From contig CAKPBI010000006.1 in assembly GCA_934140285.1 (NCBI GenBank), positions 7,042 through 71,041 on the forward strand: a stretch of DNA of 64,000 nucleotides. Direction: 5' to 3'. Below, in pieces: positions 23,815 to 64,000 of the stretch. Source of the stretch: an uncultured Bacilli bacterium. GTDB lineage: Bacteria; Bacillota_I; Bacilli_A; ML615J-28; CAG-313. Position numbers and translations under genes: made by a program. Position 1 is the stretch's first letter; each line of letters opens with the position of its first letter. The notes beneath the pieces are model-generated. The model saw nothing but the letters and a program-made list of their open reading frames with translations. It had not been told where the DNA came from and searched no databases.

Positions 23815-23826
23815 AAGAGAAAGTAT

Positions 23827-24257: not shown

Positions 24258-24295
24258 CTAATGTTGTATAATAAATAAAAAGAGAGGTATAATCA

Positions 24296-25422: not shown

Positions 25423-25495
25423 AGGAACTAGTATATATGAACTGAACACCATTGTTCATTGGTGTATTTCAATATTTAGTTCCTTTTTGATATTT
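25423..25495 (+). terminator. long hairpin (AAAGGAACTA...TAGTTCCTTTTT, inner ACACCA...TGGTGT) downstream of Fic-1
   Basis: The inverted repeat is followed by a T-run. It is a probable terminator or attenuator between Fic-1 and the sigma-like gene. Confidence 0.45.
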
Positions 25496-25587
25496 ATAAG
25501 TTATTAATAATTATTATAGTAATATATAAAGTAGTGGGAACCTTTTTTAATCTTTTACAACTATATAAGTGAAGAGGTAAATATTTC

Positions 25588-27198: not shown

Positions 27199-27274
27199 AT
27201 TTAACAGACTATTGTAATTTCTTATCTATTATGATAAAATGTAAGCATAAATAAAAATTAAGGAAAAATAGATA

Positions 27275-27373
27275 ATGTTTAAATTTGTATTTGACTTAGG
27301 AACTATACTTAATATTTTCTTAACAATCTTATATTTAATTATTATAATTAGTTTCCAGTTTGTAAAGATTTAG
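27275..27373 (+). CDS. 32-aa hydrophobic peptide ORF (MFKFVFDLGTILNIFLTILYLIIIISFQFVKI)
   Basis: It has a good RBS (AAGGAAAAATAGATAATG). It is absent from the ORF track because it is below 60 aa. It is speculative. Confidence 0.2.
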   Translation: MFKFVFDLGTILNIFLTILYLIIIISFQFVKI

Positions 27374-27401
27374 TTCTTGGGGTATAAAAAGAAATATATG
27401 T

Positions 27402-27656
27402 ATGACCTCAGAAGAACTATGGCATAAAGTACATGTAAATGCAAGTTTTGCGACCATTCCATTTTTACTAATAAGTACCTTGTTAATCTTTCTAAATAAC
27501 CTTTGGGTTAAGATTGTCGTAGGTTTACTATTATTGTTAATACTTCCAATGATATGGAATATCGTAGTAAAACTAACCCCAAAAAATAAATCACTTGAAT
27601 TAAGAAAACAAGAACAACAAGAATCAGAATCACAAATAAAAAAAGAATCATATTAG
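27402..27656 (+). CDS. small two-TM membrane protein, hypothetical
   Basis: This 84-aa ORF is hydrophobic, has a charged C-terminus and a weak RBS. Confidence 0.3.
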   Translation: MTSEELWHKVHVNASFATIPFLLISTLLIFLNNLWVKIVVGLLLLLILPMIWNIVVKLTPKNKSLELRKQEQQESESQIKKESY

Positions 27657-27996
27657 AATTAATAAAACACCTAATTTCTACCACCAACGCAACTAACTGG
27701 TGCAGTAAATTAAGCATAAAAAGTTGATAAATTATTTATAATGTTATATAATATTAGTGTAAAAGACCTCAAACAACGAAAGGAGTTGATTACTATGAAA
27801 ATCATGTTTTATAATAAATTAGAAGTAATCAAATCCTTTATAGGTACAGATATTTAATATTTTGTAGCAAGCATATAGAAACTATAGGCACTTCTAGTTT
27901 ATTAGAGGTGCTTTTTTGTTGCTACAAGAAAGGAGTGATAACATATGAAACAAATAACTTTAAAACGAAAAGAGGTATCTTACTATTAGCTTTGGC

Positions 27997-28185
27997 ATGA
28001 ATTTAAGAAAATTAAGAGAAAAGAAAAACTTATCTCAAGAAGCTCTTTCAAAAAAACTAAAGATTTCTAGACATTCAATATCCAAGTGGGAACAAGATAT
28101 AAGTTATCCTAGTATTTTGTATCTTATTCCCATCACTAAAATACTTGAATGTACACTAGATGAATTATTGAAAGATCTAAATTAG
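27997..28185 (+). CDS. XRE-family HTH regulator (62 aa)
   Basis: LSQEALSKKLKISRHSISKWEQ is the HTH_XRE signature. It is preceded by a 14-codon ORF (27946-27990) carrying the strong RBS AAAGGAG. Confidence 0.45.
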   Translation: MNLRKLREKKNLSQEALSKKLKISRHSISKWEQDISYPSILYLIPITKILECTLDELLKDLN

Positions 28186-28483
28186 AAAGAAGGAGTTAAG
28201 AATGAATGAATTTAAAGTATATAAGACAATCCATTCTTTAAACAAAGCAAAGAAAATCATGATATTCAATTCATTAAAGTTGTATTAAATAAATGGAATA
28301 TTATTATGAAAAACTATAATTTCTATAAAAGATGTTTATTGGAATTAGGATTTAAACAAAAAGATAATGAACTATTCACACTAGATGTTGAATAAAGATA
28401 ATTAAAAAAAGTTAGTATACAATAAATTAATTGTAAAATTTAAAAGATAATGAGACAAACATATAATATAATTTGACTTTAGG

Positions 28484-28607
28484 TAATACTTATCTTTTAA
28501 TGAATTCAAATAATAATAAATGATTGCTACCGGGCAAATGAATGTAAAGCATTCATATACTTATCGTTAGGTCCTTGAAGATAAGTATGTGAATGCTTAT
28601 TTTTTTG
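28484..28607 (+). promoter_or_regulatory. structured 5' leader with intrinsic terminator directly upstream of pnuC RBS (candidate riboswitch/attenuator)
   Basis: An 18-bp stem (28548-28565 paired with 28580-28598, one G-U) and T9 end 8 nt before the RBS GGAGGA. The upstream segment TAATACTTATC (28484-28494) can pair with the 3' stem half as an antiterminator. Confidence 0.45.
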
Positions 28608-28616
28608 GAGGATTAT

Positions 28617-29320
28617 ATGAAAATACTTAAAGCAATTGTAAAATACTTTTCAATAGGAGAAATTCTATTGTGGAGTTTCTCAACTATTTTAATTATTGCT
28701 TCATTTTGCCTTTTTGGTAAATCAAACTATCTAACTCTTGTAGCATCACTTATTGGTGTAACTTCTTTAATTTTTAATGAAAAAGGAAATCCTATAGGTC
28801 AAATTTTGATGATTATATTTAGTTTAGTTCATGGATACATTTCATTTATCTTCAAATAATATGGTGAAATGTTAACATATGTATGTATGACAATGCCGAT
28901 GGCAGTATTTGCTTTGGTATCTTGGTTAGCCCCCCTTTTAAAGGAGATAAAGCTGAAGTAGAAGTTAACAAACTAAAAAAGAATGAACCAATAATCATGT
29001 GGTTTTTAACAATTATTATAACAGTAATCTTCTATGTTATTTTAAGAGCCTTTAACACAAAAAACATTATTCCTAGTACAATCTCAGTAACCACAAGTTT
29101 TATTGCGGTATACCTTACTTTTAGAAGAAGTTCTTTTTATGCAATAGGTTATGCAACAAATGATATAGTACTAATTATACTATGGACTTTACCAACCATT
29201 GAAAACATATTTTACCTTTTTTGTAATTGTTTGTTTTATAACTTTTCTCGCAAACGATGTATATGGATTTATAAATTGGCAAAAGATGACTCAAAGGCAA
29301 TCAGATATAACAAAAGCATA
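28617..29320 (+). pseudogene. pnuC: nicotinamide riboside transporter PnuC, disrupted by at least 3 frameshifts
   Basis: The pieces lie in three frames: MKILKAIVKYFSIGEILLW...FIFK; YGEMLTYVCMTMPMAVFALVSWLAPL; and ...IMWFLTIIITVIFYVIL...ATNDIVLIILW. The final frame has ANDVYGFINWQKM, the PnuC C-terminal signature. One shift is at a C6 homopolymer (28930-28935). Confidence 0.5.
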
Positions 29321-29423
29321 AATAAAGAATGCCGTTATCGGCAATTTAACTTTTAAAATCAACAATTAATTACTTGATAATTTGCCGATAATGTGATATA
29401 ATAATCCTATATGGAGGTGTTTT

Positions 29424-30320
29424 ATGAATTATCTAAGCGTATTAGAAATTTCTAAACTTTGGAATTTGTCAGAACGCAGTGTTAGAAATTATTGTGCTAA
29501 TGGTAGAATCCCGGGAGCAATTCTTCTAGGTAAGACATGGATGATCCCAAGTAATGCTAAAAAACCAGAAAGAAAGAATAGAGAAAATTTTACTAAAAAT
29601 ACTTTACTTAATATTTTGAAACTTGAAAAAGCAACTAAGCTAAAAGGTGGAATATATCATAAAATTCAAATTGAACTTACATACAATTCTAATCATATGG
29701 AAGGAAGTAAACTTACTAGTGATCAAACTAGATATATTTATGAAACTAATACTATTGGTCAATCTAATGAAATAATAAATGTAGATGATATAATTGAAAC
29801 AGTTAACCATTTTAGATGTATTGATTTAATAATAGATAAAGCCAAACTTAATATTACAGAAAATCTCATAAAACAGCTTCATCTTATTTTAAAAAGTGAA
29901 ACGAGTGATAGTAGAAATAAATGGTTTGTTGTTGGTGATTATAAAAAATTACCAAGTGAAGTTGGCGGTCTTCCTACAACAAAACCAGAAAACGTCAAGG
30001 ATGAAATTAAAACTTTAATTGATTGGTATAACAATATTGAAACTAAAACATTAAATGACATAATTGAATTTTATTATCGTTTTGAATCTATTCATCCGTT
30101 CCAAGATGGTAATGGTAGAGTAGGAAGACTTTTAATGTTTAAAGAATGTTTAAAATACAATATTGTACCTTTTATAATAGATGATAATTTAAAAATGTTT
30201 TATTATAGGGGATTAAAAGAATGGCCAGTGGAAAAAGGGTATTTAATAGATATATGTAAGTCAGCTCAAGATCACTTCAAAAAATACTTAGATTACTTTA
30301 GAATTAAATATGATAAATAG
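29424..30320 (+). CDS. Fic-family AMPylator with N-terminal HTH (class II), paralog of 24296-25183
   Basis: HPFQDGNGRVGR is the Fic motif and SNHMEG the inhibitory motif. The N-terminal HTH is LEISKLWNLSERSVRNYCANGRI. A promoter TTGATA-17-TATAAT and the RBS TGGAGGTG are present. Confidence 0.8.
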   Translation: MNYLSVLEISKLWNLSERSVRNYCANGRIPGAILLGKTWMIPSNAKKPERKNRENFTKNTLLNILKLEKATKLKGGIYHKIQIELTYNSNHMEGSKLTSDQTRYIYETNTIGQSNEIINVDDIIETVNHFRCIDLIIDKAKLNITENLIKQLHLILKSETSDSRNKWFVVGDYKKLPSEVGGLPTTKPENVKDEIKTLIDWYNNIETKTLNDIIEFYYRFESIHPFQDGNGRVGRLLMFKECLKYNIVPFIIDDNLKMFYYRGLKEWPVEKGYLIDICKSAQDHFKKYLDYFRIKYDK

Positions 30321-30388
30321 ATAATTATTATAAAATTACTTCACTTTTTTAAAACTTTGTTACTATATTAGTGAAAGGAGGTATCATT

Positions 30389-31945
30389 ATGCAAAATAAA
30401 GAGCAATTAAAAGAATTAATAGCAAGTGAATATTTAAATAGATTCTTAACATTTTATATAAGCAGAACCTCTTCAATACAAGATGCGGAAGACTTATCAC
30501 AAAAGGCGGCCTGTGAGTGTTTAGATGCTTTAAGTCGTGTTGAAGAAATAAAGAATGTAAATGCTTATTTTTGGAGTATTGCTCATAATGTATATAAAAA
30601 CTACATTAATAGAAAAAATAATTATATTTTAGATGATGATTATTGTAAAATACAAATTATTGACACTTGCGATGATGAAAATAATGAAGAACAAACATTA
30701 CATAATGATATTAGAAAATCACTAAGTATCCTTTCAGGGTTATATCGTAAGATAATAGTACTTTACTATTATCATGAATTAAAAATCAAAGATATAGCCG
30801 AAAAACTTAATATTAGCCAAGACATGGTTAAGTATTATTTGTCAAATGGAAAGAAAAAGTTAAAGGAGATTTATGATATGAATAAGACAATCGGTGAAGT
30901 AAGCTTTAATCCTAAAGATTTTTCAATATACTATTCAGGAATTGATTTTACAAGCATAAACGTGTGGGAACTATTTAAAAGAAAATTACCATGTCAAATT
31001 GCCTTAATATGTTATGCTAAACCTAAATCAGTAACTGAAATTTCTAATGAAGTAGGTTGTAGTAGTTGTTACATTGAAGATGAAATTGCAATACTATTAA
31101 AAGCCGGAGTATTAATTGAAAAAGTAAAGAATAAATATCAAACAAATTTTTGCATTATCAGTAAAGAAGAACTTGATGTTATTGATACAATGTATAAAAA
31201 AATGTATGACGAATATGTAAAAGAAGTTGAAAAAGTTTTTAATGAACATTTTGAACAATTTAAACAAACAAATATTTATAATTATAAAGCTGAAATAGAT
31301 CAATACAAATGGATTTTTGTAGATAGAATCGCAGATATAGATAAAAGAAAGTTAGTTACTAAAGATTCAGATTATCCCAAAATTTTATCGTGTGGTGCAA
31401 GAGGATTAGTTTTTGGATTAGAAGCCAAAACTCCAAAAGGAGTATGTGGTCAAACCCCAACTTCATTAAATGATTATACCCTATGGGCAAGAGATTTATG
31501 GTTATCTAAAAACCATAGTTCCAATCAAGTAATCTTAAGAGATAAAGTAATAGCACAAACCGTCATTGATGTGTATAATGGTATAGTTGATAATAGTAAA
31601 GAAGAATTATATGCCTATTTAATTAAAAACAATATTTTAATTAAAGATAATGGAGTATTAAAAACGACTATTGCCTACTTAAATGAGGATTTTCAAAAAC
31701 TAATGGAAAACATCAATAATGATTTATACGTTAAATTAGAATCATCAACAAACAAAATTAAAGAATATTTAACAAAAATAATAACCAAATCAATTCCAAG
31801 TAATCTAAAAGAATATGTTAATGGATATGTTGTTATTTTAATGGAATTCTTTGCTGGTAACAAAATAATTCAAACTTTAATTGAAAATAATTTTTTAAAT
31901 GATAAAATAAAAAACATCCAAATTAGTTATTTTATCAATAAATAA
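30389..31945 (+). CDS. ECF-type sigma-70 family protein with ~350-aa C-terminal extension, paralog of 25588-27198
   Basis: Region 2 reads IQDAEDLSQKAACE...AYFWSIAHNVY. Region 4 reads YRKIIVLYYYHELKIKDIAEKLNISQDMVKYYLSNGKKKLKE. The RBS AAGGAGG precedes the ATG at 30389. The domain order matches the first sigma-like gene. Confidence 0.55.
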   Translation: MQNKEQLKELIASEYLNRFLTFYISRTSSIQDAEDLSQKAACECLDALSRVEEIKNVNAYFWSIAHNVYKNYINRKNNYILDDDYCKIQIIDTCDDENNEEQTLHNDIRKSLSILSGLYRKIIVLYYYHELKIKDIAEKLNISQDMVKYYLSNGKKKLKEIYDMNKTIGEVSFNPKDFSIYYSGIDFTSINVWELFKRKLPCQIALICYAKPKSVTEISNEVGCSSCYIEDEIAILLKAGVLIEKVKNKYQTNFCIISKEELDVIDTMYKKMYDEYVKEVEKVFNEHFEQFKQTNIYNYKAEIDQYKWIFVDRIADIDKRKLVTKDSDYPKILSCGARGLVFGLEAKTPKGVCGQTPTSLNDYTLWARDLWLSKNHSSNQVILRDKVIAQTVIDVYNGIVDNSKEELYAYLIKNNILIKDNGVLKTTIAYLNEDFQKLMENINNDLYVKLESSTNKIKEYLTKIITKSIPSNLKEYVNGYVVILMEFFAGNKIIQTLIENNFLNDKIKNIQISYFINK

Positions 31946-32023
31946 TAACTTATAAAGTTACAAAAAACTAAATATAGTATATAATATTAAAGAAAACAAA
32001 TAAACTTAAGATAAGGTGATATC

Positions 32024-32731
32024 ATGAAAACATATAGTACTCCCCATTATATTTTTACATATGAAGAAGGAAGTCTTGCGGAAAAAGACATCAAAATGAT
32101 TGCTGATGTCCAAGAAAATAGTTTCAACAAAATATGTGAAACATTAAAAGTAGATTTTCCTGAAAAAATAAAATACTATTTATTAGATTCAAAAGAAGAA
32201 GTTGGAAAACTATATGGTGATAACACTCCTATTAATGGTTTTGCTGTATGGGGAGAAAACAAAGTTTATGTAGTTTATAACAATGATACAAAATGCATTG
32301 GCCCACATGAAGATGCTCATCTTATCTCATTTATTATTAATGCTCCCATATCTGACTTTATTGTTGAAGGCCTCGCAATGTACTTTGACAAAGAATGGTG
32401 GAGACAATCAAATGATAGCTGGGCAGCATATTATAAAAAGAATGATGATACTCTATCTATTTTGAAATTACTAGATAACAATGAATTCTTCAAATATAAT
32501 TGTGAACTAACATATCCCATAGCAGGTTCATTTACTAAATTTTTAATTGAAACTTTTGGTATTTCAAAATACCTCGAACTATACAAAATAAAAACGGAAA
32601 TAAAAAAAGAAGATTTTGAAAATATATTTAACCTTACTCCTTTTGAAATAGAAACAATGTATTGGAATAAAATTAAAGAAATTCCGTTTAATTCAAAAAT
32701 TTTCAAAAAACTATTAAATGATAACAAGTAA
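32024..32731 (+). CDS. hypothetical protein with HEXXH motif (possible small zinc-dependent peptidase)
   Basis: The only recognisable motif is HEDAHLISF. It is a 235-aa protein with no signal peptide. The RBS is AAGGTGA. Confidence 0.35.
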   Translation: MKTYSTPHYIFTYEEGSLAEKDIKMIADVQENSFNKICETLKVDFPEKIKYYLLDSKEEVGKLYGDNTPINGFAVWGENKVYVVYNNDTKCIGPHEDAHLISFIINAPISDFIVEGLAMYFDKEWWRQSNDSWAAYYKKNDDTLSILKLLDNNEFFKYNCELTYPIAGSFTKFLIETFGISKYLELYKIKTEIKKEDFENIFNLTPFEIETMYWNKIKEIPFNSKIFKKLLNDNK

Positions 32732-32749
32732 AATAAAGAGGTATCATCC

Positions 32750-33256
32750 ATGATTAATTTAGTTAAATTAAATTACACAAGCGATAAAGTAGATGAAATA
32801 TTAAAGGAAATGGCCATAATTACGATTGATAATTTATCATACATTTATGGCGATGATATGAAGTCAAATGAAAACATCAAAAGTTATGTAGAATACAAAA
32901 AACAAGCTAAACCCATAACATACTTAATGCATGATGAAACATCAATATTTGGATACTTAACTTTAAGTTTAAGTTCAAAGATATTATATATTGAAGATAT
33001 CCAAATTAAAAATAGCTATCGTAATAATCCAGGAGTCATGTCAATGATTCTAAAAACTATTACTATAGAGTATCTAGAAAATAAAAATCAAATTGATAAA
33101 GTTGTATACTACATTAATAAAAAGAATAAACTTTCACAACATAACTTTTCAAAATTTGCTGAAAAGACCGAAGAAACCAAAAACAGCTATATGTATGCAC
33201 TTAATTTAGAACATCCATTTATTGTAAAGATGATTGATAAAGTAAAAAAGCAATAA
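32750..33256 (+). CDS. putative GNAT-family acetyltransferase
   Basis: At 168 aa it has a GNAT-like size and a weak motif around IEDIQIKNSYRNNPGVMSMIL. Confidence is low. A terminator hairpin lies at 33262-33290. Confidence 0.35.
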   Translation: MINLVKLNYTSDKVDEILKEMAIITIDNLSYIYGDDMKSNENIKSYVEYKKQAKPITYLMHDETSIFGYLTLSLSSKILYIEDIQIKNSYRNNPGVMSMILKTITIEYLENKNQIDKVVYYINKKNKLSQHNFSKFAEKTEETKNSYMYALNLEHPFIVKMIDKVKKQ

Positions 33257-33295
33257 AATAAGTCTAGTAGGAATAAAACTACTAGACTATTTTTA

Positions 33296-33324
33296 TTGAC
33301 AAAACTAATGTGATTAGTTATAAT
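33296..33324 (+). promoter_or_regulatory. consensus sigma-70 promoter (TTGACA-17-TATAAT) with embedded palindrome AACTAAT-GTG-ATTAGTT (33303-33319) upstream of tetR
   Basis: The -35 and -10 elements are perfect. The 7-bp inverted repeat lies within the spacer and is a likely TetR operator. Confidence 0.6.
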
Positions 33325-33351
33325 ATAACTACAATTAGTTTGGAGGCCAAT

Positions 33352-33918
33352 ATGTCTAAAAATAATATTAACGAACAACTTATTATTGAAACAGCAGCAT
33401 CCCTAGTTAATAAAGTAGGTTTAACTAATTTATCATTAAAACTAGTGGCAGAAGAATTAAATATTAAATCACCATCTTTATATAATCATATTTCTAGTTT
33501 GGAAGAACTAAAATCCAAACTTATGATCTATGGATGGAGATGCCTTGAAGAAAAGATAATTGATGCTGCAGTAGGAGTAACTGGATATGATGCTATAAAA
33601 AATATGTGTTATGCCTTTTATGATTATGCTACAACTAATAAAGGTATATTTACAACAATGCTTTGGTACAACAAATTTGAAAGTGTGGAAAAAGCTACAA
33701 CAAAACTATTTAATATTGTATTTAAAATAATGAAACCACTAAATATTAGTGAAGATAATATAAATCATATAATAAGAACACTAAGAGGATTCTTAGATGG
33801 CTTTGCTTTGCTTGTAAATAACGATGCATTTGGCAATCCGCTTCCTATAAAGGAAAGTTTTGATTTATCCCTTGAAATAATTATTAATGGCATAAAAACC
33901 CTAGAAGGAGTGAACTAA
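33352..33918 (+). CDS. TetR/AcrR-family transcriptional regulator
   Basis: The N-terminal HTH reads IETAASLVNKVGLTNLSLKLVAEELNIKSPSLYNHI. The RBS is TGGAGG. Confidence 0.7.
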   Translation: MSKNNINEQLIIETAASLVNKVGLTNLSLKLVAEELNIKSPSLYNHISSLEELKSKLMIYGWRCLEEKIIDAAVGVTGYDAIKNMCYAFYDYATTNKGIFTTMLWYNKFESVEKATTKLFNIVFKIMKPLNISEDNINHIIRTLRGFLDGFALLVNNDAFGNPLPIKESFDLSLEIIINGIKTLEGVN

Positions 33919-33919
33919 A

Positions 33920-34678
33920 ATGAATGATTATATCAATTTAACGCATGATAACATTGAAAAAGAACATATTTGTTGTGCCATTGGAGACAAAAAACATCAA
34001 AAAGGTGTTGAAAAGAAAAAACAATGGATTGAAAGAAAACTTGATGATGGTCATATTTTTCGAAAACTAAATGCTAGAGGCAAAGTATTTATAGAATATG
34101 AACCAATTGAAACCGCATGGGTACCAATCAATGGACATAATTATGAATATATTTATTGCTTGTGGGTAGCTGGTAGTTTCAAAGGAAAAGGAATTGCAAA
34201 AGAACTTTTAGAATATGCCATAGCTGACGCAAGATCAAAAGGTATGAGTGGTATTTGTACAATAACTTCCAAAAAGAAAAAACCTTTTATTGGCGAAAAA
34301 GCCTTCTACCTTCATTATAACTTTAAAGTAGTAGATGAAATTGATGATTATGAACTACTAGCATTAGAATTTAATAATGATGAGACACCTAAATTTAATG
34401 AAAATGCAAAACTTATGAAAATAGATAATCAAGACTTTACAATTTATTATAGTAATGAGTGTCCTTATGTTGAATATGAAGTAGAAGAACTTAGTGAATA
34501 TGCGAAAAATAATAATATAATAATTAACTTCATAAAAGTTGATACATTAGAAAAAGCTAAAAGTGTACCTTGTATTTTTAACAATTGGGCTAACTTTTAT
34601 AAGGGTAAGTTCATATCAAACACAATTCTAAACGCTAATGCTTTAGAAAAATTAATTAAAAGTTTAAATAATGACTAA
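33920..34678 (+). CDS. GNAT-family N-acetyltransferase with YoaP-like C-terminal domain
   Basis: CLWVAGSFKGKGIAKELLEYAIADAR is the acetyl-CoA binding Q/RxxGxG/A-like motif. The architecture is two-domain. Confidence 0.55.
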   Translation: MNDYINLTHDNIEKEHICCAIGDKKHQKGVEKKKQWIERKLDDGHIFRKLNARGKVFIEYEPIETAWVPINGHNYEYIYCLWVAGSFKGKGIAKELLEYAIADARSKGMSGICTITSKKKKPFIGEKAFYLHYNFKVVDEIDDYELLALEFNNDETPKFNENAKLMKIDNQDFTIYYSNECPYVEYEVEELSEYAKNNNIIINFIKVDTLEKAKSVPCIFNNWANFYKGKFISNTILNANALEKLIKSLNND

Positions 34679-34693
34679 TTTTAGGAGAATTAT

Positions 34694-35266
34694 ATGAATG
34701 AACGTCCCAACTTAACTAAAGAATTAAAGGTAGAAACATTTCTTAATTATTATTATTTAAAAGAAGAATTAATTAATTTTTGTAAAGAATATAACTTACC
34801 ATCATCAGGTAGTAAGATTGAACTAACTAACCGTATTGCATATTTCCTTAAAACAGGTTTAATCCAAAAACCTGAACGTAAAAAAACAATTAAACAACAT
34901 CATCAAGACATTACTGAAGATTCACTGATTGAACCAAATTTTGTGTACTCAGAAGAAAATAGAGCCTTCTTTGTCAGCAAAATTGGTAAAAGCTTTTCAT
35001 TCAATGTTTTATTTCAAAAATGGTTGAAAACAAACGCTGGTAAAACATATAAAGATGCTATCAATGCCTATTATGAAATACTAAATACCAAGAAAAAAAC
35101 AAACACGCCAATTGATAAGCAATTTGAATATAACACCTATATTCGTGATTTCTTTAAAGAAAACCACAACAAAACTTTAGCTGATGCTATAATTTGTTGG
35201 AAATATAAAAAGAGTCTACCTGGTCACAATCGCTATGAACCATCAGACCTTAAAGCATTAGATTAA
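34694..35266 (+). CDS. SAP-domain-containing hypothetical protein
   Basis: LKEELINFCKEYNLPSSGSKIELTNRIAYFL matches the SAP motif pattern. Confidence 0.4.
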   Translation: MNERPNLTKELKVETFLNYYYLKEELINFCKEYNLPSSGSKIELTNRIAYFLKTGLIQKPERKKTIKQHHQDITEDSLIEPNFVYSEENRAFFVSKIGKSFSFNVLFQKWLKTNAGKTYKDAINAYYEILNTKKKTNTPIDKQFEYNTYIRDFFKENHNKTLADAIICWKYKKSLPGHNRYEPSDLKALD

Positions 35267-35337
35267 TAAAAACAAATTACTTGACTTATAGCTATATTAT
35301 AATGTTATAATTTAACTATAAAAATGGAGGGAATAAA

Positions 35338-35994
35338 ATGAAAACAATCACAATAACAGGAATCGGCAAACTATCAGTTAAACCAGATTTAATCGTAATC
35401 TCTATGCAGCTTGATACCGAAAACAAAGAATATGATCAAGCAATGCTTTCAGCAAGTGAAAAAATTAATGCCTTAAATAAATCACTAGAAGAACTAGGAT
35501 TTAGTAAAGATGCTTTAAAAACTACAAACTTTAATGTTCGTACAATCTATGAAAATATAAAAGATGAAACTGGTAGATATAAAAATGTATTTAAAGGTTA
35601 TTCTTGTATTCATAACTTAAAGTTAGAATTTGACTTTGATACCAAACAACTATCAAAAGTATTATCAAGAATATCTAACTGTATCGCAAAACCAGAACTT
35701 TCGATTTTATTTACCATAGAAGATAAAACAAAGATAAACGAAGAACTTTTAAAATCAGCTTCTTTCAATGCCTTAGAAAAAGCAAAAATCCTATGTCTTG
35801 CTTCAAACGTAAAACTAGGTAATCTTATATCAATTAATTATAGTTGGGGAGAACTAAATGTTCATTCAGATACTAACTATAAAGTAGAAGCAAGATGTAT
35901 GATGAAAGCAGAATCTTGTCTTTCTAATATAGATATTGAACCTGAAGATATCGATATAACAGATTCTGCAACTTTTGTTTGGAAAATAATTTAA
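35338..35994 (+). CDS. SIMPL/DUF541-family protein (YggE-like)
   Basis: The N-terminus ITITGIGKLSVKPDLIVISMQLDTE and its size fit DUF541. A bidirectional terminator lies at 36014-36038. Confidence 0.4.
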   Translation: MKTITITGIGKLSVKPDLIVISMQLDTENKEYDQAMLSASEKINALNKSLEELGFSKDALKTTNFNVRTIYENIKDETGRYKNVFKGYSCIHNLKLEFDFDTKQLSKVLSRISNCIAKPELSILFTIEDKTKINEELLKSASFNALEKAKILCLASNVKLGNLISINYSWGELNVHSDTNYKVEARCMMKAESCLSNIDIEPEDIDITDSATFVWKII

Positions 35995-36021
35995 ATATAA
36001 AAAAGAATACACAAAAAGCCA

Positions 36022-56345: not shown

Positions 56346-56374
56346 TTGACAGAATTTTTATACTATGGTATAAT
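56346..56374 (+). promoter_or_regulatory. consensus sigma-70 promoter TTGACA-17-TGgTATAAT starting a ~255-nt leader ahead of the paralog array
   Basis: TTGACA lies at 56346-56351 and TATAAT at 56369-56374 with an extended -10 TG. No long ORF is present until 56638. Confidence 0.55.
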
Positions 56375-56637
56375 TATGTTAAGGTTTGGGCCACCCATAA
56401 TTAATAAAAGATTAACTGGAGAAAGGCATTAATCAATTATTAATTATACAATTGAATATTAGTTAATCAAAATGATTAAATATTTGTATGCTAGGTAGAA
56501 TACGCTTTTGCCTCTGACGTAAGGGTAAAAGTCGTAGACTGCCAATAATAGGATGCAGGTTTTTAGTCATTTTTTAAATAATAGGACGCTTAAGCATATG
56601 CATATAATGAAAGAGAAAAAAGGAGAATAAAATAATT

Positions 56638-57261
56638 ATGGATAAAAAGAAAATTAATGTTAAAAAGATAATTAAAATCACTATTTTATTGATAATACTT
56701 ATAACAATTCCTACAACAATAATGTGTAGATCTAGTTGTATGTATTCAGAAAAAGGTCATTATAGAAGAATTCAAAAAAGAATAGAAGAAAGATTTATTG
56801 AAACTGGTGTACATAAAGAATATGAACTATACCCATTATATGATGAAAATGATAAATTAAAATATTTTGTAGTTGATTTTCCAACTAATTATCATATTAT
56901 AAGGATAAATAAATATGATTTAGGTTGCCTAGGCGTATCAATGTATACACTATCTATAAATAATCCATGGCAAAGATATGTCTTAGAAAATGGAGAAAAA
57001 GTATATGAAAAAGATAAAGATGGTAACGATATATTCTATAAACAAAGTCCATATAAAATAGCAGGAATAAAAGATGAAAAAAAATATTTAATTGAGGTTA
57101 GCCAAGGCTCAAGTTCAAGTTATGTTCCAGCAGTAAAAAGAGGAGACAAGTACTTAAATCTAATCTCAATGAAAGAAGAAGAAATAGTATTGAAATCAAA
57201 TGAACAAATAAATGAAACATGGACTATAAGTTGTATCTATAAGCCATATTTTGATTTATAA
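56638..57261 (+). CDS. paralog 1 of a 4-member tandem family: small N-terminally anchored secreted/lipo-protein, unknown function
   Basis: The signal or TM anchor ILLIILITIPTTIMC-RSSC is followed by the conserved core HYRRIQKRIEERFIETG...NPWQRYVLENGEK...VPAVKRGDKYLNLISMKEEEI. The first ~300 nt are identical to copy 3. Confidence 0.6.
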   Translation: MDKKKINVKKIIKITILLIILITIPTTIMCRSSCMYSEKGHYRRIQKRIEERFIETGVHKEYELYPLYDENDKLKYFVVDFPTNYHIIRINKYDLGCLGVSMYTLSINNPWQRYVLENGEKVYEKDKDGNDIFYKQSPYKIAGIKDEKKYLIEVSQGSSSSYVPAVKRGDKYLNLISMKEEEIVLKSNEQINETWTISCIYKPYFDL

Positions 57262-57290
57262 TAGTTATAAATAAAGTAAAGGAAATAATT

Positions 57291-57917
57291 ATGGAAAAAA
57301 AGAAAATTAATGTTAAAAAGATAATAAGAATAACTATTTTATTGATAATACTCATAACTATTCCTACAACAATAATGTGTAGGTCTAGTTGTATGTATTC
57401 AGAAAAAGGCCATTATAGAAGAATTCAAAAAAGAATAGAAGAAAGATTTATTACTACAGGATTGTATGAAGAATATGAACTATACCCATTATATGATGAA
57501 GAAGATAAACTAAGATATTTTGTTGTTGAATTTTCTCCTACTGACTATCGTGTAATAAGCATAAATAAATATGATTTTGGTTGCTTAGGTGCATCAATGT
57601 ACTCACTCTTTGAAACTAATCCATGGCAAAGATATGTCTTAGATAATGGAGAAAAGATATATGAAAAAGATAAAGATGGTAATGATATATTCTATAAACA
57701 AAGTCCATATAAAATAGCAGGAATAAAAAATGAAAAAAGATATTTAATTGAGGTTAAACAAGATTCTAATCTATTTTATGTTCCAGCAGTAAAAAGAGGA
57801 GATAAGTACTTAAATCTAATATCAATGAAAGAAGAAGAAATAATATTAGAATCAAAGAAAGAGATAAATGAATCATTGGATATCTACTTTTTTATCAAAC
57901 CAAGATTTGATTTATAA
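57291..57917 (+). CDS. paralog 2 of the tandem family
   Basis: It is about 85% identical to copy 1. It lies only 29 nt after copy 1, so it is probably co-transcribed. Confidence 0.6.
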   Translation: MEKKKINVKKIIRITILLIILITIPTTIMCRSSCMYSEKGHYRRIQKRIEERFITTGLYEEYELYPLYDEEDKLRYFVVEFSPTDYRVISINKYDFGCLGASMYSLFETNPWQRYVLDNGEKIYEKDKDGNDIFYKQSPYKIAGIKNEKRYLIEVKQDSNLFYVPAVKRGDKYLNLISMKEEEIILESKKEINESLDIYFFIKPRFDL

Positions 57918-58007
57918 TAAGTATAAAAAAACATATAAAACATTTTTATTTAAACGAGAAAAAACAAACAATTAATTGTTTGCATGAATAAAAAGGGAGT
58001 GTAAAAA

Positions 58008-58631
58008 ATGGAAAAAAAGAAAATTAATATTAAAAAGATAATTAAAATCACTATTTTATTGATAATACTTATAACAATTCCTACAACAATAATGTGTAGA
58101 TCTAGTTGTATGTATTCAGAAAAAGGTCATTATAGAAGAATTCAAAAAAGAATAGAAGAAAGATTTATTGAAACTGGTGTACATAAAGAATATGAACTAT
58201 ACCCATTATATGATGAAAATGATAAATTAAAATATTTTGTAGTTGATTTTCCAACTAATTATCATATTATAAGGATAAATAAATATGATTTAGGTTGCCT
58301 AGGCGTATCAATGTATACACTTTTTGAAACTGATCCATGGCAAAGATATGTCTTAGAAAATGGAGAAAAAGTATGTGAAAAAGATAAAGATGGTAATGAT
58401 ATATTCTATAATCAAAGCCCATATAAAGTAGCAGGAATAAAAGATGAAAAAAGATATTTGATGTGTGTTCAACAAGATTCTAATTTTAATTATGTTCCAG
58501 CAGTAAAAAGAGGAGATAAGTACTTAAATTTAATCTCAATGAAAGAAGAAGAAATAATATTAGAATCAAAGGAAGAGATAAATGAATCATGGGATATAAG
58601 AGATTATATTTGTTCACAATTTGATTTGTAA
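58008..58631 (+). CDS. paralog 3 of the tandem family
   Basis: The N-terminal half is identical to copy 1 and the C-terminal half resembles copy 2. An 18-bp palindrome CAAACAATTAATTGTTTG (57965-57982) lies upstream. Confidence 0.6.
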   Translation: MEKKKINIKKIIKITILLIILITIPTTIMCRSSCMYSEKGHYRRIQKRIEERFIETGVHKEYELYPLYDENDKLKYFVVDFPTNYHIIRINKYDLGCLGVSMYTLFETDPWQRYVLENGEKVCEKDKDGNDIFYNQSPYKVAGIKDEKRYLMCVQQDSNFNYVPAVKRGDKYLNLISMKEEEIILESKEEINESWDIRDYICSQFDL

Positions 58632-58719
58632 TAAGTATAAAAAACATATAAAAAACTTTTATTTAAATGATAAAAGCAAACAATTAATTGTTTGCATGAA
58701 TAAAAAAGGAGTGTAAAAA

Positions 58720-59349
58720 ATGGAAAAAAAGAAAATTAAAAAGATAATTAGAATAACCAGTTTATTAATAGTGATATTTGTATTGTTAGCGATACCTACT
58801 TTAAAAATGTGTTATCCACGTTGTATATATTCAGAAAAAGCTCATTATAGAAGAATTCAAAAAAGAATAGAAGAAAGATTTATTGAAACTGGTGTACATA
58901 AAGAATATGAGCTATACCCATTATATGATGAGAATGATCAATTAAAATATTTTGTTGTTGATTTTCCAACTAATTATCATATTATAAATATAAATTCATT
59001 TGATTATAGTTGTATTTCTGGTACATCATTATATTCACTATCTATAACTAATCCATGGCAAAGATATGTCTTAGAAAATGGAGAAAAAGTATATGAAAAA
59101 GATGAAGATGGTAATGATATATTTTATAATCAAAGTCCATATAAAGTTGCAGGAATAAAAGATGAAAAAAGATATTTAATTAAAATTAGACAAGGATCTA
59201 ACTCAGATTTTGTTCCTGCAGTAAAAAGAGGAGATAAGTATTTAAATCTAATATCAATGAAAGAAGAAGAAATAGTACTAAAATCAAATGAAGAAGTAAA
59301 TGAAACATTCTATACATTTTATTCACCAAAGCCACAGTTTAATTTATAA
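58720..59349 (+). CDS. paralog 4 of the tandem family (most divergent N-terminus)
   Basis: The anchor differs (MCYPRC), the C-terminal tail resembles copy 1 and the mid-region resembles copy 3. A 20-bp palindrome GCAAACAATTAATTGTTTGC (58676-58695) lies upstream. Confidence 0.6.
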   Translation: MEKKKIKKIIRITSLLIVIFVLLAIPTLKMCYPRCIYSEKAHYRRIQKRIEERFIETGVHKEYELYPLYDENDQLKYFVVDFPTNYHIININSFDYSCISGTSLYSLSITNPWQRYVLENGEKVYEKDEDGNDIFYNQSPYKVAGIKDEKRYLIKIRQGSNSDFVPAVKRGDKYLNLISMKEEEIVLKSNEEVNETFYTFYSPKPQFNL

Positions 59350-59417: not shown

Positions 59418-62400
59418 ATGAAGAGCATTATCACAAGAAATTTATTTAAATTAACACTAATTTTATTAAGTATAGTAACACTACTTTATATAATTAAACC
59501 ATCAAATGTAAATGCAAATGTAGGTGTAGATACATTAAACTCCAAAGGAGATGAAGAAATAGCAATCAAATATGAGAATGAACATAATTTATCTGATATT
59601 AAATTAATAAAAAATGCTACATATTTCAAAAATAACCCAAAGCATGGTAATAATGATGGAACTATAAACTCTAAGGGAACATGTACTACTGTTGCAATGC
59701 AACTTTTAATGGGGTATCATAATTATTATAGTTATAGAAAAATAATTCCTGAATATGGAAATGATGGAGAAAAATTTTTGGAGGATAATTATGGCGATTT
59801 ATTGGAACATCCATCAATAAATGATGAAGTAGGAGAAGGACAAGGAAAAGCCAGTATAGGAACAACAGATGATTTTTATCTTGAATTGATAGAATTAAAC
59901 GATGTATCACAAGGAACTGCTTTAGGACAAGCAATTGGCGTTGTTAAAGATGCAGCTGAAAAATTTGTGAATAAATATACAGATTTAACAGATGCTTCAA
60001 TAACTATTGATTCAGGGATATATGATGAGGCAGAAGCGTTATCGGAAATTAACAAGGACAATCCAATAATTCTAGGATATAATCCTTTTAAAACTGATGA
60101 TTATTCATTTCATATAGTAGTTGCATATGGATATGCGAAATACAATAATGTTGAAGGATATATAGTTCATTGTGGTTGGGGAGATTATAAAAACTATGCC
60201 TGGATTCCAGAAAGCTTAATTGCATTTAAAATTAAAATGAATGTTATACATAATCACAATTTACAATATACTGGTGAAACAGTGCAAGATAGTTATCGAG
60301 TATTACGATGCACTTCATGTGGGTATGAAGAACTAGAGTGTGTGTATCAATTAAATGAAGATGGAAATGCAATAACAGGTATAAAATATCCATTAAATGA
60401 AAATATAACAATTCCAGATAAAATATATAATAAAACTATTAATGTAATTTCTAATAATGCATTTTCACAAAATGCTGAAATAAAAAGAGTAGATTTTTCT
60501 GATTCACTTAATATAATTGGTGAAAATGCATTTTATAATTGTCCAAATTTAGAGTTAATAAACATAAGTGGTAATTTGCAAAGCATAGGAAAATCTGCTT
60601 TTAAAAATTGTCCAAATTTAACATATGTCAATAATTTCAGTAATATAAATACCATAGAAGAAAGTGCATTTGAGGAATGTTCTAACTTGAGAGCGGTTGA
60701 TTTTCCTTCAACGTTAATAAGTATAGGAAATTCAGCATTTAAAAATTGTTCAAAATTAAATTCTGCTTTAATGAAAGGAAATTTAAAAAATATTGGAAAT
60801 AATGCATTTGAAGGTTGTACATCTTTGTGGAGAGTTGAACTATCCGAAATGCTTGAAACAATAGGAGAATCTGCATTCAAAGGGTGTACAAGTTTAATTT
60901 TACTTGATATGAAAGATAATGTAATAAATATCAAAAAAAATGCATTTGAAGGTTGTGCATCTTTGAAAAACTTTACACTCTCAACAAGTCTTGAAACAAT
61001 AGGAGAATCTGCATTTAAAGGTTGTAAATTACTTAATAATATTACTTTACCAAATAGTCTAAAAACAATAGGTTCAAGTGCCTTTATGAATTGTGAGGGT
61101 CTTACAAGTATATCTATACCTTATCAAATTGAAATAATTGAGTCTAATGTATTTATAAATTGTACTTCATTACAAGAAATAACTATTCCAAATAATTGTA
61201 AAATAATTAAAGATTCAGCATTTAAATATTGTACAAGTTTAAATAAAATAAATATACCTAATACCTTACAAGAAATAGGTGTAAGTGCCTTTGAACATTG
61301 TGAGAGTATAAAAAACATTGAACTACCAGATTCAATAACAAAAATAGGGGAAAATGCATTTTATAGGTGTCTTAAACTTGAAACAATTCATTTGCCAGAA
61401 AACCTTCAAATAATTGAAAACAATACGTTTTATGGCTGTAACAAAATTGTAACAATTCATTTACCTGAAAATCTTCAAGCAATTAAAAACAGAGCTTTTT
61501 ATGGTTGTAGTGGTCTAAAGAATATATCTCTTCTTTTCAAAGTTGAAGAAGTAGGAGATGAAGCATTCTCAAGATGTTTTGAATTAGAAAGAGTATACAT
61601 TAAAAAAGAAACAGGTAGATTAACATCATTTGGGGTAAATGTTTTTGAGTTTACATCTAGAGATTTAAAGATTATAGTCCCTTTAAATAAATATGTTGAA
61701 TATTCAATTAGTAGTAATCTAACAACTTACAAAGATATAATTTTACCAAGTAATTATATTAATGAATTAACATTAAACTGTAAGAGTAATTTAAATAATA
61801 CCATCTCTCTTACAAGTGGATATAATAAACTTTATATTTTAAATATTGATTGTGCTAAAACATATAAAATACTTGCTGATGCGTCATCTGATGTAAATAT
61901 TAAAATATATAAAGATGATTTAACTAAAATATATGATGATAATAATATCAGTTACCCATATTTAAATGTTGGTATGTATTATTTATCAGTAGAATATGTT
62001 GATGAAACATCATCTGGTGATCTTAATCTTAATCTTACATTAAGATGGAATACTAATGATACCACCTTAACTATGGGCTCAAATGATATTAAGAGTGCGT
62101 TACATAAGACTACAAATGATTTATATCATGGTTACTTTGAATTAATAGTAACTAGAAGTAATTCAGTATATAAATTTACTTTTAATGCGGGTAATAATAT
62201 AGTATATCCAGAAGGTTGCATTAAAGTATATAATGGCTATGATAGAACTAACTTAATGACTCGTTTAGGCGGAAATTCTCTCGCAAAAACTGAAACTAAC
62301 GAAAATCAAATGTATGTATTTTTTAATACAGATAATACTAGATGCAATATAACTATTGAACTTCCATATGATACTTATAATTCAATAACATTTGAAGTTG

Positions 62401-63395
62401 AAGAAATAGATGATTATCAAACCGATTATCTAAATAGTCTTGCTAGTGTATGCTTTGATGAAATATTATCAAATAGAACTGCCCAAAGTACATTTAAAGA
62501 AGTAACTATTAGCCATCGTTCTAAAATTCAATTAGACATTGTGACAAGTGGAACTATTACAAATAATATTCCTATTTATATTATAAGTAAAGAACGAGAA
62601 GGAGGACTAGACATTGGTGTAGTTAGTTATGTATTAACAACCAAACTAAGTGAATGTATTACTATAGATCATAGCGGTCCAGTATTTACCAGTATTTTAG
62701 ATCCTGGAACTTACTATATTGGGTATACCAAAAATAATAATAATGTAAATATTAGTTTTGCTTTAAAAAGACTTGTAAATCAAGAACTAAATATTGGTGG
62801 AACCTTGGTTGCGGACCCAGCTAACGACTTAGGTTTCATCGCAGGAAGCGAAGTAACCTTAAATGGAGGAAGCTTTAGAGGTAATACAATAACTGAAGGC
62901 TTTACAAGACATCTCTATTTAATGGTTGAAAATGTTTTAGAAGAACCAATGTCAAGATTAGAATATGACTGGTATTCAAGTAATGAAAATGTTGCTAAAG
63001 TAACTGCTTATGGTACAGTACTTGCATTGAACGTAAATGCTGATACTGATGTTACCATCTACGCAGTAAATAAAGATGATCCATCAAGAGTATATTTAAA
63101 AACCTTTACCATCAAGAAAGAAACAGAAACTGATCCAATCTTTATATCTTGTGAAATGTCATATTCTTATGCACAAGAAAATGGAAGATACACCTTAGAA
63201 TTAGATTTTAGTAATAGTCCATTCCCATATCTAGCTTACTATGACTATAGTATAGAAGATAATGATAACATTGGAGCAGCTATAGTTGGTTTTGGCTTTA
63301 TGTATTCAAATAGACCAGGAACTGTAGAAATCACATTAAATTATCGATTAAATAGAAGAGTCTTTATTTACATTACTTTAACAATAACTGAATAA
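59418..63395 (+). CDS. large secreted/cell-surface protein: N-terminal papain/C39-like cysteine peptidase domain, BspA-type leucine-rich repeat array, C-terminal beta-rich domains
   Basis: It has a signal peptide. GTCTTVAMQLLMGYHNYY has a Cys-peptidase-like Cys, followed by HIVVAYGY and HCGWGD. About 20 repeats of the type IGxxAFxxCxxLxxIxIPxxL follow, which is the LRR_5/BspA type. A terminator lies at 63399-63428. Confidence 0.65.
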   Translation: MKSIITRNLFKLTLILLSIVTLLYIIKPSNVNANVGVDTLNSKGDEEIAIKYENEHNLSDIKLIKNATYFKNNPKHGNNDGTINSKGTCTTVAMQLLMGYHNYYSYRKIIPEYGNDGEKFLEDNYGDLLEHPSINDEVGEGQGKASIGTTDDFYLELIELNDVSQGTALGQAIGVVKDAAEKFVNKYTDLTDASITIDSGIYDEAEALSEINKDNPIILGYNPFKTDDYSFHIVVAYGYAKYNNVEGYIVHCGWGDYKNYAWIPESLIAFKIKMNVIHNHNLQYTGETVQDSYRVLRCTSCGYEELECVYQLNEDGNAITGIKYPLNENITIPDKIYNKTINVISNNAFSQNAEIKRVDFSDSLNIIGENAFYNCPNLELINISGNLQSIGKSAFKNCPNLTYVNNFSNINTIEESAFEECSNLRAVDFPSTLISIGNSAFKNCSKLNSALMKGNLKNIGNNAFEGCTSLWRVELSEMLETIGESAFKGCTSLILLDMKDNVINIKKNAFEGCASLKNFTLSTSLETIGESAFKGCKLLNNITLPNSLKTIGSSAFMNCEGLTSISIPYQIEIIESNVFINCTSLQEITIPNNCKIIKDSAFKYCTSLNKINIPNTLQEIGVSAFEHCESIKNIELPDSITKIGENAFYRCLKLETIHLPENLQIIENNTFYGCNKIVTIHLPENLQAIKNRAFYGCSGLKNISLLFKVEEVGDEAFSRCFELERVYIKKETGRLTSFGVNVFEFTSRDLKIIVPLNKYVEYSISSNLTTYKDIILPSNYINELTLNCKSNLNNTISLTSGYNKLYILNIDCAKTYKILADASSDVNIKIYKDDLTKIYDDNNISYPYLNVGMYYLSVEYVDETSSGDLNLNLTLRWNTNDTTLTMGSNDIKSALHKTTNDLYHGYFELIVTRSNSVYKFTFNAGNNIVYPEGCIKVYNGYDRTNLMTRLGGNSLAKTETNENQMYVFFNTDNTRCNITIELPYDTYNSITFEVEEIDDYQTDYLNSLASVCFDEILSNRTAQSTFKEVTISHRSKIQLDIVTSGTITNNIPIYIISKEREGGLDIGVVSYVLTTKLSECITIDHSGPVFTSILDPGTYYIGYTKNNNNVNISFALKRLVNQELNIGGTLVADPANDLGFIAGSEVTLNGGSFRGNTITEGFTRHLYLMVENVLEEPMSRLEYDWYSSNENVAKVTAYGTVLALNVNADTDVTIYAVNKDDPSRVYLKTFTIKKETETDPIFISCEMSYSYAQENGRYTLELDFSNSPFPYLAYYDYSIEDNDNIGAAIVGFGFMYSNRPGTVEITLNYRLNRRVFIYITLTITE

Positions 63396-63425
63396 AAAAG
63401 AAAAGGTAGCTTAAACTACCTTTTT

Positions 63426-64000
63426 TTAAACGCCTTGTAAGATATTAAGATTTCTTAGTTCAGGATCTTTGATTTGATTATTAACAGAATATGAATGAGT
63501 ATCTAGATTATTACATTTTTCTTTGGTGTAATTTTTATCAATTAATTCACTGATTATTCTTTCTGATATTAATGAGATTAATTCTTGTTTTTTAATGATG
63601 GTTTCTTTATCATTATTGTTTAGAATTAAAAAGGATAAGTCATCTTTTAAGTCACTTAATAATGTTAAGTTATCAAGTCCTTTAAACATCCATTTATAAT
63701 ATGGCATAAGTGTATTATTTAAAAGATAAATACAGTTTATAGCATGTTTTACAAATTCAAATAAAGATACTTGTGCACCACTTAAATCATTTCTTTGAAT
63801 CATTCTTGTAAAATTATACATTCCTGATTGATGCATTAAAAATAAGTTTCCCGCAAGTTTTTTTAGGATAACATCTTGAGGAATATTTTTTAGGTTATTT
63901 CTTACAATACTAAATACTCCAAGATCATCTTTAAATACTTCACCATTAGTTGCTTCAAGAATGTAGAATTCTTCAACTTTCAACCAATCAGTTAAGGTTT
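63426..64000 (-). CDS. hypothetical protein, 5' end probably beyond window
   Basis: The frame stays open from the TTG start-like codon at 63983 to the window edge. It shares a bidirectional terminator with the LRR gene. There is a faint resemblance to nucleotidyltransferase-associated helical domains. Confidence 0.3.
   Translation of the reverse strand, partial: TLTDWLKVEEFYILEATNGEVFKDDLGVFSIVRNNLKNIPQDVILKKLAGNLFLMHQSGMYNFTRMIQRNDLSGAQVSLFEFVKHAINCIYLLNNTLMPYYKWMFKGLDNLTLLSDLKDDLSFLILNNNDKETIIKKQELISLISERIISELIDKNYTKEKCNNLDTHSYSVNNQIKDPELRNLNILQGV

Follow-up and report, generated by a model that had tools for sequence, protein, structure and literature searches.

A recombining array of small anchored proteins upstream of a predicted papain-fold protease with leucine-rich repeats in an uncultured gut Bacilli bacterium

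The 64,000-nucleotide stretch analyzed here (hereafter, the window; contig CAKPBI010000006.1, positions 7,042 to 71,041 of the forward strand) derives from an uncultured Bacilli bacterium and is AT-rich, with the G+C content ranging from 24% to 34%. This study concerns a tandem array of 4 paralogous genes for small anchored proteins and the gene for a large predicted secreted protease with leucine-rich repeats (LRRs) that follows the array in the same orientation. Proteins identical or near-identical to the array copies carry the source-given name "Bacilli bacterium", with an uncultured, human gut origin. The locus comprises the following features, where nt, aa, ORF and RBS denote nucleotides, amino acids, open reading frame and ribosome-binding site, respectively:

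56346–56374, forward strand: sigma-70 promoter (TTGACA, 17 nt, TATAAT, with a TG extension), matching at 12 of 12 positions and the best in the 8-kb region scanned
56381–56637, forward strand: 5′ leader of approximately 257 nt, strongly structured, with 2 extended hairpins
56638–57261, forward strand: copy 1, ORF for a 207-aa protein of an uncharacterized family, predicted to be anchored and extracytoplasmic, with a structural model
56660–56951, forward strand: tract of 292 nt identical to 58030–58321 in copy 3, of recent origin by conversion or duplication
57291–57917, forward strand: copy 2, ORF for a 208-aa protein
57918–58007, forward strand: long spacer before copy 3, 90 nt, with a palindrome (57965–57982) and the RBS of copy 3
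58008–58631, forward strand: copy 3, 207 aa, a mosaic by nucleotide alignment, with its 5′ 314 nt like copy 1 and its 3′ half nearest to copy 2
58632–58719, forward strand: second long spacer, before copy 4, 88 nt, with a palindrome (58677–58694) here extending to 20 bp
58720–59349, forward strand: copy 4, 209 aa, whose anchor diverges most among the 4; its segment 58911–59048 carries copy-1 sequence in the strain assemblies L001 and L003
59418–63395, forward strand: gene for a 1325-aa protein, downstream of copy 4
59418–60317, forward strand: signal peptide and predicted papain-fold (clan CA) cysteine peptidase domain of that protein, with the Cys89 codon at 59682–59684 and the His232 codon at 60111–60113
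60318–63395, forward strand: BspA-type LRRs and C-terminal region (Pfam LRR_5, E = 1e-123; weak Big_2 match)
63404–63431, forward strand: intrinsic terminator closing the operon, a hairpin followed by T7 (TTTTTTT), −12.7 kcal/mol, z = −3.1

All 4 array genes are intact and encode proteins 78% to 86% identical to one another, and the hydrophobic N-terminal anchor of each protein ends in Cys30. The initial annotation, made from the sequence alone, had described 4 paralogs of about 207 aa with shared motifs, an anchor closed by a cysteine and approximately 300 nt of identity between copies 1 and 3; all of these elements were recovered, with the exact run of identity being 292 nt. Between copies 1 and 3, the first 314 aligned nt contain 2 differences (0.6%) and the last 310 contain 53 (17.1%), a contrast that is highly significant when set against the distribution of differences between copies 2 and 3 (Fisher p = 5e-9). 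The additional proposal that copies 2 and 3, on the one hand, and copies 1 and 4, on the other, share C-terminal sequences agrees with the majority of the informative sites in the 3′ half, although the halves are still 12% to 14% divergent. Thus, this relationship is old and the only recent tract is the one shared by copies 1 and 3.

The locus was compared between strains using the metagenome assemblies returned by exact-sequence look-ups (individual loci are designated L001, L002 and so forth). Rather than being identical and invariant, the outcome that the initial annotation had named as speaking against ongoing recombination, the array proved to be variable: between the same flanking genes, it contains 2 copies in L009, 4 in the window, L001–L003 and L011–L013, 6 in L014 and 7 in L015. 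Across copies and strains, the array proteins are assembled from a small set of alternative blocks in differing combinations. For instance, copy 2 of L016 combines the head of copy 2 with the middle of copy 4 and the tail of copy 3, and copy 2 of L009 joins the head of copy 2, the middle of copy 1 and the tail of copy 4, matching the deletion product expected from an unequal exchange. L001 is identical to the window over approximately 6 kb upstream of the array and in copies 2, 3 and the spacers, with 1 difference in copy 1, and the 26 differences in its copy 4 are packed into positions 58911–59048, where L001 equals copy 1 over 259 nt; judging from the alignment, a lone conversion tract, running from copy 1 into copy 4, sets L001 apart. 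The pairwise homoplasy index (PHI) test across 20 distinct gene sequences was significant at p < 0.0005, with at least 20 recombination events (minimum number of events, Rmin, of 20), and remained so for the window copies alone (p = 0.003). The differences in copy number, the reassortment of blocks, the PHI result and the L001 tract strongly support ongoing recombination generating variants, as the initial annotation had suggested. All array copies are intact in every strain examined. The ratio of nonsynonymous to synonymous substitution rates (dN/dS), calculated by segment with the Nei–Gojobori method, ranges from 0.4 to 0.7 among the copies and is approximately 1 only in the C-terminal tail; with no segment clearly above 1, positive selection was rejected.

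The array and the downstream gene appear to form one operon. The promoter is invariant or nearly so across 7 strain assemblies and is likely to be the single promoter of the operon. An RBS is present for every small-gene copy, no terminator-like sites were found on the coding strand between the operon genes, and this layout suggests that copies 1 to 4 and the protease–LRR gene would be co-transcribed. The minimum free energy of the leader is −66.3 kcal/mol, compared to a mean of −41.6 kcal/mol for shuffled sequences (z = −6.1). The leader was rejected as a known riboswitch or RNA family, given that it has no Rfam match even at E ≤ 10, and it is nearly invariant in close strains and absent from distant lineages, hence without a covariation signal; a role as a regulatory RNA or as an attenuator is conceivable.

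The key to reading the array is the N-terminal domain of the 1325-aa protein, a papain-fold protease domain that is absent from the initial annotation, in which the protein figured as a giant surface protein. The domain has the papain-like two-lobe fold, with Cys89 (in the motif GxCTTVAxQ) at the start of the central helix and His232 (in FHVVVAYGY) on the β-sheet lobe. Both residues are invariant in 16 homologs (34% to 43% identity), and a VH(Y/C)GW motif follows. Residues 1 to 300 have no Pfam or NCBIfam match even at E ≤ 10 and no PDB sequence or profile match, and the profiles of peptidase families C10 (streptopain), C47, C39 and C66 did not match the domain significantly. Accordingly, the domain is apparently a predicted peptidase of an unclassified clan-CA family fused to LRRs; the family is rare, with 19 clusters found. 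The stretch between the signal peptide and the catalytic core is just some 45 residues long, indicating a protease without a prodomain. The protein carries a cleavable signal peptide only, with no recognizable C-terminal or wall anchor. Variation in this gene was also observed between strains. In L003, in which the gene is otherwise nearly identical to that of the window, the differences cluster within approximately 100 nt (approximately 63005–63107, gene nt 3588–3690) near the weak Big_2 region, suggestive of a further recombination tract, to which a paralogous LRR gene may have contributed; in L001, the gene has 18 differences, all within its C-terminal third.

As the initial annotation had noted, the small proteins have no recognizable domain: sequence and profile searches against Pfam, NCBIfam, PADLOC, PHROGs and PDB returned no match. 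In particular, none of the 4 copies matches DUF576 (Csa-Lpl-Til) in Pfam at E ≤ 1, there is no match to PrcB_C, PrsA-type families or I69 (Spi/C10 propeptide-like) in Pfam, and the protein is not the lipocalin-like eight-stranded β-barrel of approximately 110 aa found in staphostatins (I57) and Bfi inhibitors. An indexed search placed the family in 76 clusters at 90% identity and an exhaustive one in 397 at 50% identity; a single species-level lineage accounts for more than 50 distinct clusters at 90% identity. All members are single-domain proteins of 150 to 300 aa from gut Bacilli and Clostridia, including an orphan homolog in the cultured Pumilibacter intestinalis. Alignment of distant members revealed near-invariant motifs, namely, YPLYDENDxLxYF, W111, Y114 and PAVKRGDKYLNLISM, and the conserved β-hairpin of the family carries PAVKRGDKYLNL. 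The AlphaFold2 model of the copy 1 monomer (predicted local distance difference test score, pLDDT, 90.8; predicted template modeling score, pTM, 0.80) consists of the anchor helix, a 17-residue helix, a four-stranded sheet and a second sheet with the conserved hairpin, at the turn of which lies an R-G-D tripeptide; the fold is a confident prediction and no structural relative was found. The R-G-D tripeptide (residues 168–170; 57139–57147 in copy 1), at the predicted turn of the PAVKRGDKYLNLISM hairpin, is near-invariant across the family. It may be simply structural, and a part in integrin-type host interaction is conceivable.

Many relatives carry LTGC, LSGC, LFGC or FAGC at the lipobox position, where the consensus [LVI][ASTVI][GAS]C closes the signal peptide, whereas TIMC or LKMC occupies this position in the window copies, and a variant from one strain lacks the anchor cysteine altogether (KIYY). 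Lipidation in the window lineage is doubtful, and membrane tethering of the small proteins, lipidated or not, is likely. We also considered the small protein as a trans-acting prodomain, for which the sole match, obtained by aligning the family with the N-terminal extension of the L021 protease variant (hhalign), spans 29 columns (LYDENDxLxYFxVDF) and is weak (probability 8%, P = 0.004); this candidate was set aside.

In at least 6 lineages, with small proteins 33% to 45% identical to those of the window, a small gene lies 15 to 100 nt upstream of the same protease domain. The linked loci occupy at least 4 unrelated genomic contexts, following GH3/amidohydrolase, rpoC (L019–L024), lysS (L017) or an ATP_bind_3 gene (L029, L031 and L032), and others were found in a metagenome-assembled genome (MAG) of Clostridia (L039) and in metagenome contigs (L048 and L055/56). 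The small gene can also occur without the protease gene: about 9 lineages carry it as an orphan, and in about half of the lineages sampled the small genes are orphans, singly or in arrays. One such array, L034 (3046–7393, from a Clostridia MAG), consists of 3 tandem copies with no protease nearby, which are bracketed by 2 small Listeria-Bacteroides repeat (Flg_new) proteins, with an unassigned 224-aa ORF directly upstream of the copies.

The protease gene has been lost in 4 independent cases with the small genes remaining intact. L002 and L003, which come from independent projects, share the same 2 nonsense changes, GGA to TGA at the conserved Gly170 and TTA to TAA at Leu538 (within L002 5941–9785 and L003 5916–9763, equivalent to 59925–59927 and 61029–61031 in the window). 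Apart from these changes, L002 matches the window throughout 3.8 kb, and its 4 small genes are all intact. Reassignment of a stop codon was rejected as an explanation, one stop being TGA and the other TAA, with TGA serving as a stop elsewhere in the window. In L014, the protease gene carries frameshifts; its protease domain is an allele 78% identical to that of the window, with flanks at 97.5% to 99%; the domains of the other close strains are 99.6% to 100% identical, and the polymorphism is that of a single strain. The gene is fully deleted in L018 and internally deleted in L025–L028. ORFs of 70 to 71 aa between the small copies (L017 8668–8883; L018 7746–7961 and 8668–8883; L019 7111–7323), of which the 71-aa ORFs of the rpoC lineage were considered as a third component and rejected, turned out to be truncated 5′ ends of the protease gene, comprising the signal peptide and approximately 65 residues. 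Thus, these arrays grew by duplication of a unit that joins the small gene to the first part of the protease gene.

Other lipoproteins occupy comparable positions. In L052 (189–5167), a copy of the present family is followed by unrelated lipoprotein genes encoding 178 aa and 206 aa and then by a gene for a Peptidase_S8 (subtilase)–BspA-LRR protein. These 2 lipoproteins are paralogs of each other with canonical lipoboxes, and the 6- and 7-copy arrays are interrupted midway by this pair as well (L014 8020–9191; L015 2392–3563). A third lipoprotein family (195 to 196 aa) occurs in the same loci (L021 8926–13054; L018 8923–10149; L019 7363–7953), and in L021 the 196-aa lipoprotein directly precedes a divergent papain-like–LRR variant (30% identity) with an N-terminal extension of approximately 190 aa, possibly a prodomain. 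These arrangements suggest that lipoprotein and protease–LRR cassettes form a wider class, exchanging by recombination. Since the lipoprotein family changes with the enzyme domain, it is the enzyme domain that is pointed to as the partner.

Collectively, we favor the interpretation, with a probability of roughly 0.45, that the array is a recombining, copy-number-variable set of cognate partners of the protease domain, most likely inhibitors or immunity proteins. Partnership is suggested by the linkage to a rare protease domain, which recurs across diverged lineages and contexts. The interpretation is also favored because the canonical lipoboxes in relatives place the small protein in the compartment of the protease, because the small genes outlast the protease gene, as seen from the nonsense changes, frameshifts, deletions and orphans, because Bacteroides fragilis has exported small inhibitors whose genes are co-transcribed with those of clan-CA proteases (PMC2873492) and because the array shows the dynamics of known immunity arrays (PMC10730906, PMC9484751, PMC7360770). 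As in such arrays, the genes adjoin an enzymatic domain and form variable, recombining multi-copy strings, and orphans also occur. The initial annotation had offered antigenic variation, immunity-protein arrays and adhesin accessory factors as possible functions; the first is the least supported, and the other two are both possible, with the immunity or inhibitor function being favored. Co-transcription, physical binding, inhibition and a selective reason for the diversity are inferred.

Mechanistically, one strong promoter would drive a transcript of approximately 7 kb covering the leader, copies 1 to 4, the protease–LRR gene and the terminator, and both kinds of protein would be exported by the Sec pathway. 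The small proteins would be held at the outer face of the membrane, through a lipid anchor in most relatives and through a degenerate lipobox or signal-anchor in the window lineage, where they may bind the protease domain via the conserved face of the family, formed by the helix of residues 38–54 and the PAVKRGDKYLNLISM hairpin. Such binding would protect the cell's own envelope from its protease or from related proteases of neighboring strains. The conserved intragenic nucleotide blocks would serve as substrates for homologous recombination, leading to expansion and contraction of the array and reassortment of the variable blocks, with a differing repertoire in each strain as the outcome.

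Several observations weigh against this interpretation. The dN/dS values give no arms-race signal, and each of the parallel lipoprotein/protease pairings is represented by a single locus. Furthermore, the strain comparisons all come from short-read metagenome assemblies, which are prone to chimeras in repeats, and many contigs break inside the array, although the recovery of several mosaic forms more than once, in assemblies from independent projects, counters the concern over chimeras. A more far-reaching version of the inhibitor interpretation, according to which the small proteins represent a new fold and family of membrane-tethered inhibitors directed against a Sec-exported, contact-dependent papain–LRR weapon of gut Bacilli and Clostridia (acting on neighboring bacteria or on host proteins), the arrays record an arms race at the strain level and guardian-lipoprotein cassettes, including those with subtilase–LRR and variant papain–LRR proteins, constitute a general class, is somewhat doubtful.

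The most resilient alternative, which we consider unlikely, is that the small proteins are maturation, assembly or tethering factors that fold, activate or hold at the surface the protease–LRR protein. The conserved upstream linkage and the common compartment fit this possibility equally well, a protease without a prodomain makes a trans-acting folding helper plausible, and the large protein has no recognizable C-terminal anchor. There is also a precedent in the prcB-prcA-prtP operon of Treponema denticola, where the lipoprotein genes adjoin the gene for the surface protease dentilisin, as the small genes do here. PrcB/PrcA in the case of dentilisin and the lipoprotein PrtM in the case of lactococcal PrtP are reportedly helpers needed for protease function. 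However, unlike the small proteins, these helpers are single-copy, have subtilases as partners and are not known to be kept without the protease. A dedicated helper should decay together with its client, yet the small genes survive the 4 independent protease losses, and approximately half of the sampled lineages have them as orphans, singly or in arrays; nor does a helper function explain the 2 to 7 diverged, reassorting copies.

Quite improbable is the possibility that the small proteins are variable surface antigens, with the array varying epitopes or dosage against antibodies or phages and the link to the protease being incidental or only regulatory. A role of this kind has reportedly been proposed for the variable lipoproteins of mycoplasmas and once for Csa/Lpl of Staphylococcus aureus, and it would accommodate the surface anchoring, the copy-number variation and mosaicism, the relaxed constraint (dN/dS of 0.4 to 0.7, approximately 1 in the tail) and the more than 50 clusters at 90% identity in one species-level lineage. 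However, there are no silent donor cassettes, slippery repeat tracts or invertible promoter, and all copies are full-length, with their own RBS, in one operon. Tandem-repeat and homopolymer switches were not seen in the sequence and inverton-type repeats were not found; an invertible promoter was rejected, with only weak AT-rich inverted repeats present and the orientation of the leader being the same in 7 assemblies. Antigenic variation also leaves unexplained the linkage to one rare enzyme domain across 33% to 45% identity, and the surface hairpin is among the most conserved elements, suggesting a conserved ligand. Finally, it is most improbable that the copies are neutral tandem duplicates homogenized by gene conversion, with strain diversity reflecting in part repeat mis-assembly: many contigs do end within the array, the identical tracts of approximately 300 nt are longer than the k-mers typical of assembly and dN/dS stays below 1 throughout, but all copies are intact in all strains examined, the 397 clusters at 50% identity retain near-invariant motifs, identical mosaics recur across projects and assemblers (e.g., copy 2 of L002/L003 and the insertion of L014/L015) and arrays are present in unrelated lineages as well.

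The preferred inhibitor interpretation can be placed next to several characterized systems. The tandem DUF576 lipoproteins of S. aureus (Csa/Lpl/Til), a family with variable copy number and block shuffling via conserved internal blocks (PMC7360770, PMC9484751), were long viewed as variable antigens, and TilA is now recognized as an extracellular immunity lipoprotein (PMC10730906). It is encoded directly 5′ of the lipase toxin TslA, whose N-terminal enzymatic domain it binds and inhibits outside the cell (PMC10730906). The locus described here resembles Til/TslA in that tandem anchored paralogs with variable copy number lie 5′ of a large secreted protein with an N-terminal enzymatic domain. Unlike in S. 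aureus, the small proteins are unrelated to DUF576 and the partner is a predicted Sec-exported papain-fold protease–BspA LRR protein, rather than a lipase exported through a T7SS (type VII secretion system) with helical partner proteins; no T7SS genes were seen next to any locus examined. Furthermore, the binding of TilA to TslA has been demonstrated, whereas for the present proteins both binding and antibacterial action are putative. In the EsaG and TipC immunity strings linked to T7SS toxins of firmicutes, non-identical paralogs expand, contract and reassort by homologous recombination via blocks of high identity (PMC9484751), much as indicated here by the 292-nt tract, the L001 tract from copy 1 into copy 4, the two-copy deletion product of L009 and the PHI test (p < 0.0005). 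EsaG, however, is cytoplasmic and counters a nuclease, whereas the present proteins belong to a different family and are extracytoplasmic. As for protease inhibitors, a small gene within tens of bases of a papain-fold protease gene, and co-transcribed with it, is also the arrangement of staphostatins (staphopain), Spi (SpeB) and the Bfi proteins. Bfi1A, Bfi1B and Bfi4 of B. fragilis are exported or lipoprotein inhibitors co-transcribed with C10 proteases, 2 of them flanking one protease gene (PMC2873492). A recombining array of anchored paralogs beside an enzyme-bearing secreted protein is known behavior; the proteins, their fold, the Sec-exported LRR/papain partner and the host group are new, and we found no description of them in the library of papers searched.

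Recombining immunity or lipoprotein strings have so far been worked out almost entirely in staphylococci and streptococci, where they are tied to type VII secretion. The same population-genetic behavior is now seen in uncultured human-gut Bacilli, with relatives in Clostridia, and with a different kind of partner. If the pairing of inhibitor and enzyme is true, the small proteins would represent a new protease-inhibitor fold and the surface proteases would point to competition between strains, or interaction with the host, in the gut microbiota; if not, the array is still a clean natural case of gene conversion and "accordion" dynamics that can be tracked in metagenomes. The system offers tractable pieces, namely, a soluble domain of approximately 170 aa, a protease domain of approximately 250 aa and a relative in the cultured P. 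intestinalis.

The initial annotation had drawn attention to a perfect palindrome 25 nt upstream of the RBS of copies 3 and 4 only. The palindrome, CAAACAATTAATTGTTTG, is indeed perfect and precedes only these copies, but the 25 nt separate its end from the start codon, with the GGAG RBS being approximately 12 nt away at both sites. These are the only 2 sites in the 64 kb, and no further site was found at up to 3 mismatches (0.31 expected), so that a wider operator was rejected. The 2 spacers are homologous and approximately 10% divergent, representing one duplicated intergenic unit; the restriction of the palindrome to copies 3 and 4 is thus explained by ancestry, and the sites are not independent. 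The 58632–58719 spacer is conserved in all close strains, and the perfect conservation of the palindrome across both spacers is not significant given their divergence. The corresponding RNA hairpins are weak (−4.7 kcal/mol in the 57918–58007 spacer and −8.5 kcal/mol) and have no U-tract; a terminator was ruled out by the weak hairpin, the coding strand without a U-tract and the position between co-oriented genes. The palindrome is a passenger of the duplicated spacer, with no sign of a separate role.

Elsewhere in the window, a 14-kb segment (22000–36000) has a G+C content of 24% to 27%, compared with 30% to 34% in the remainder. A tRNA gene whose variable arm is long (21622–21704) lies shortly before its start, and the segment may be an island.

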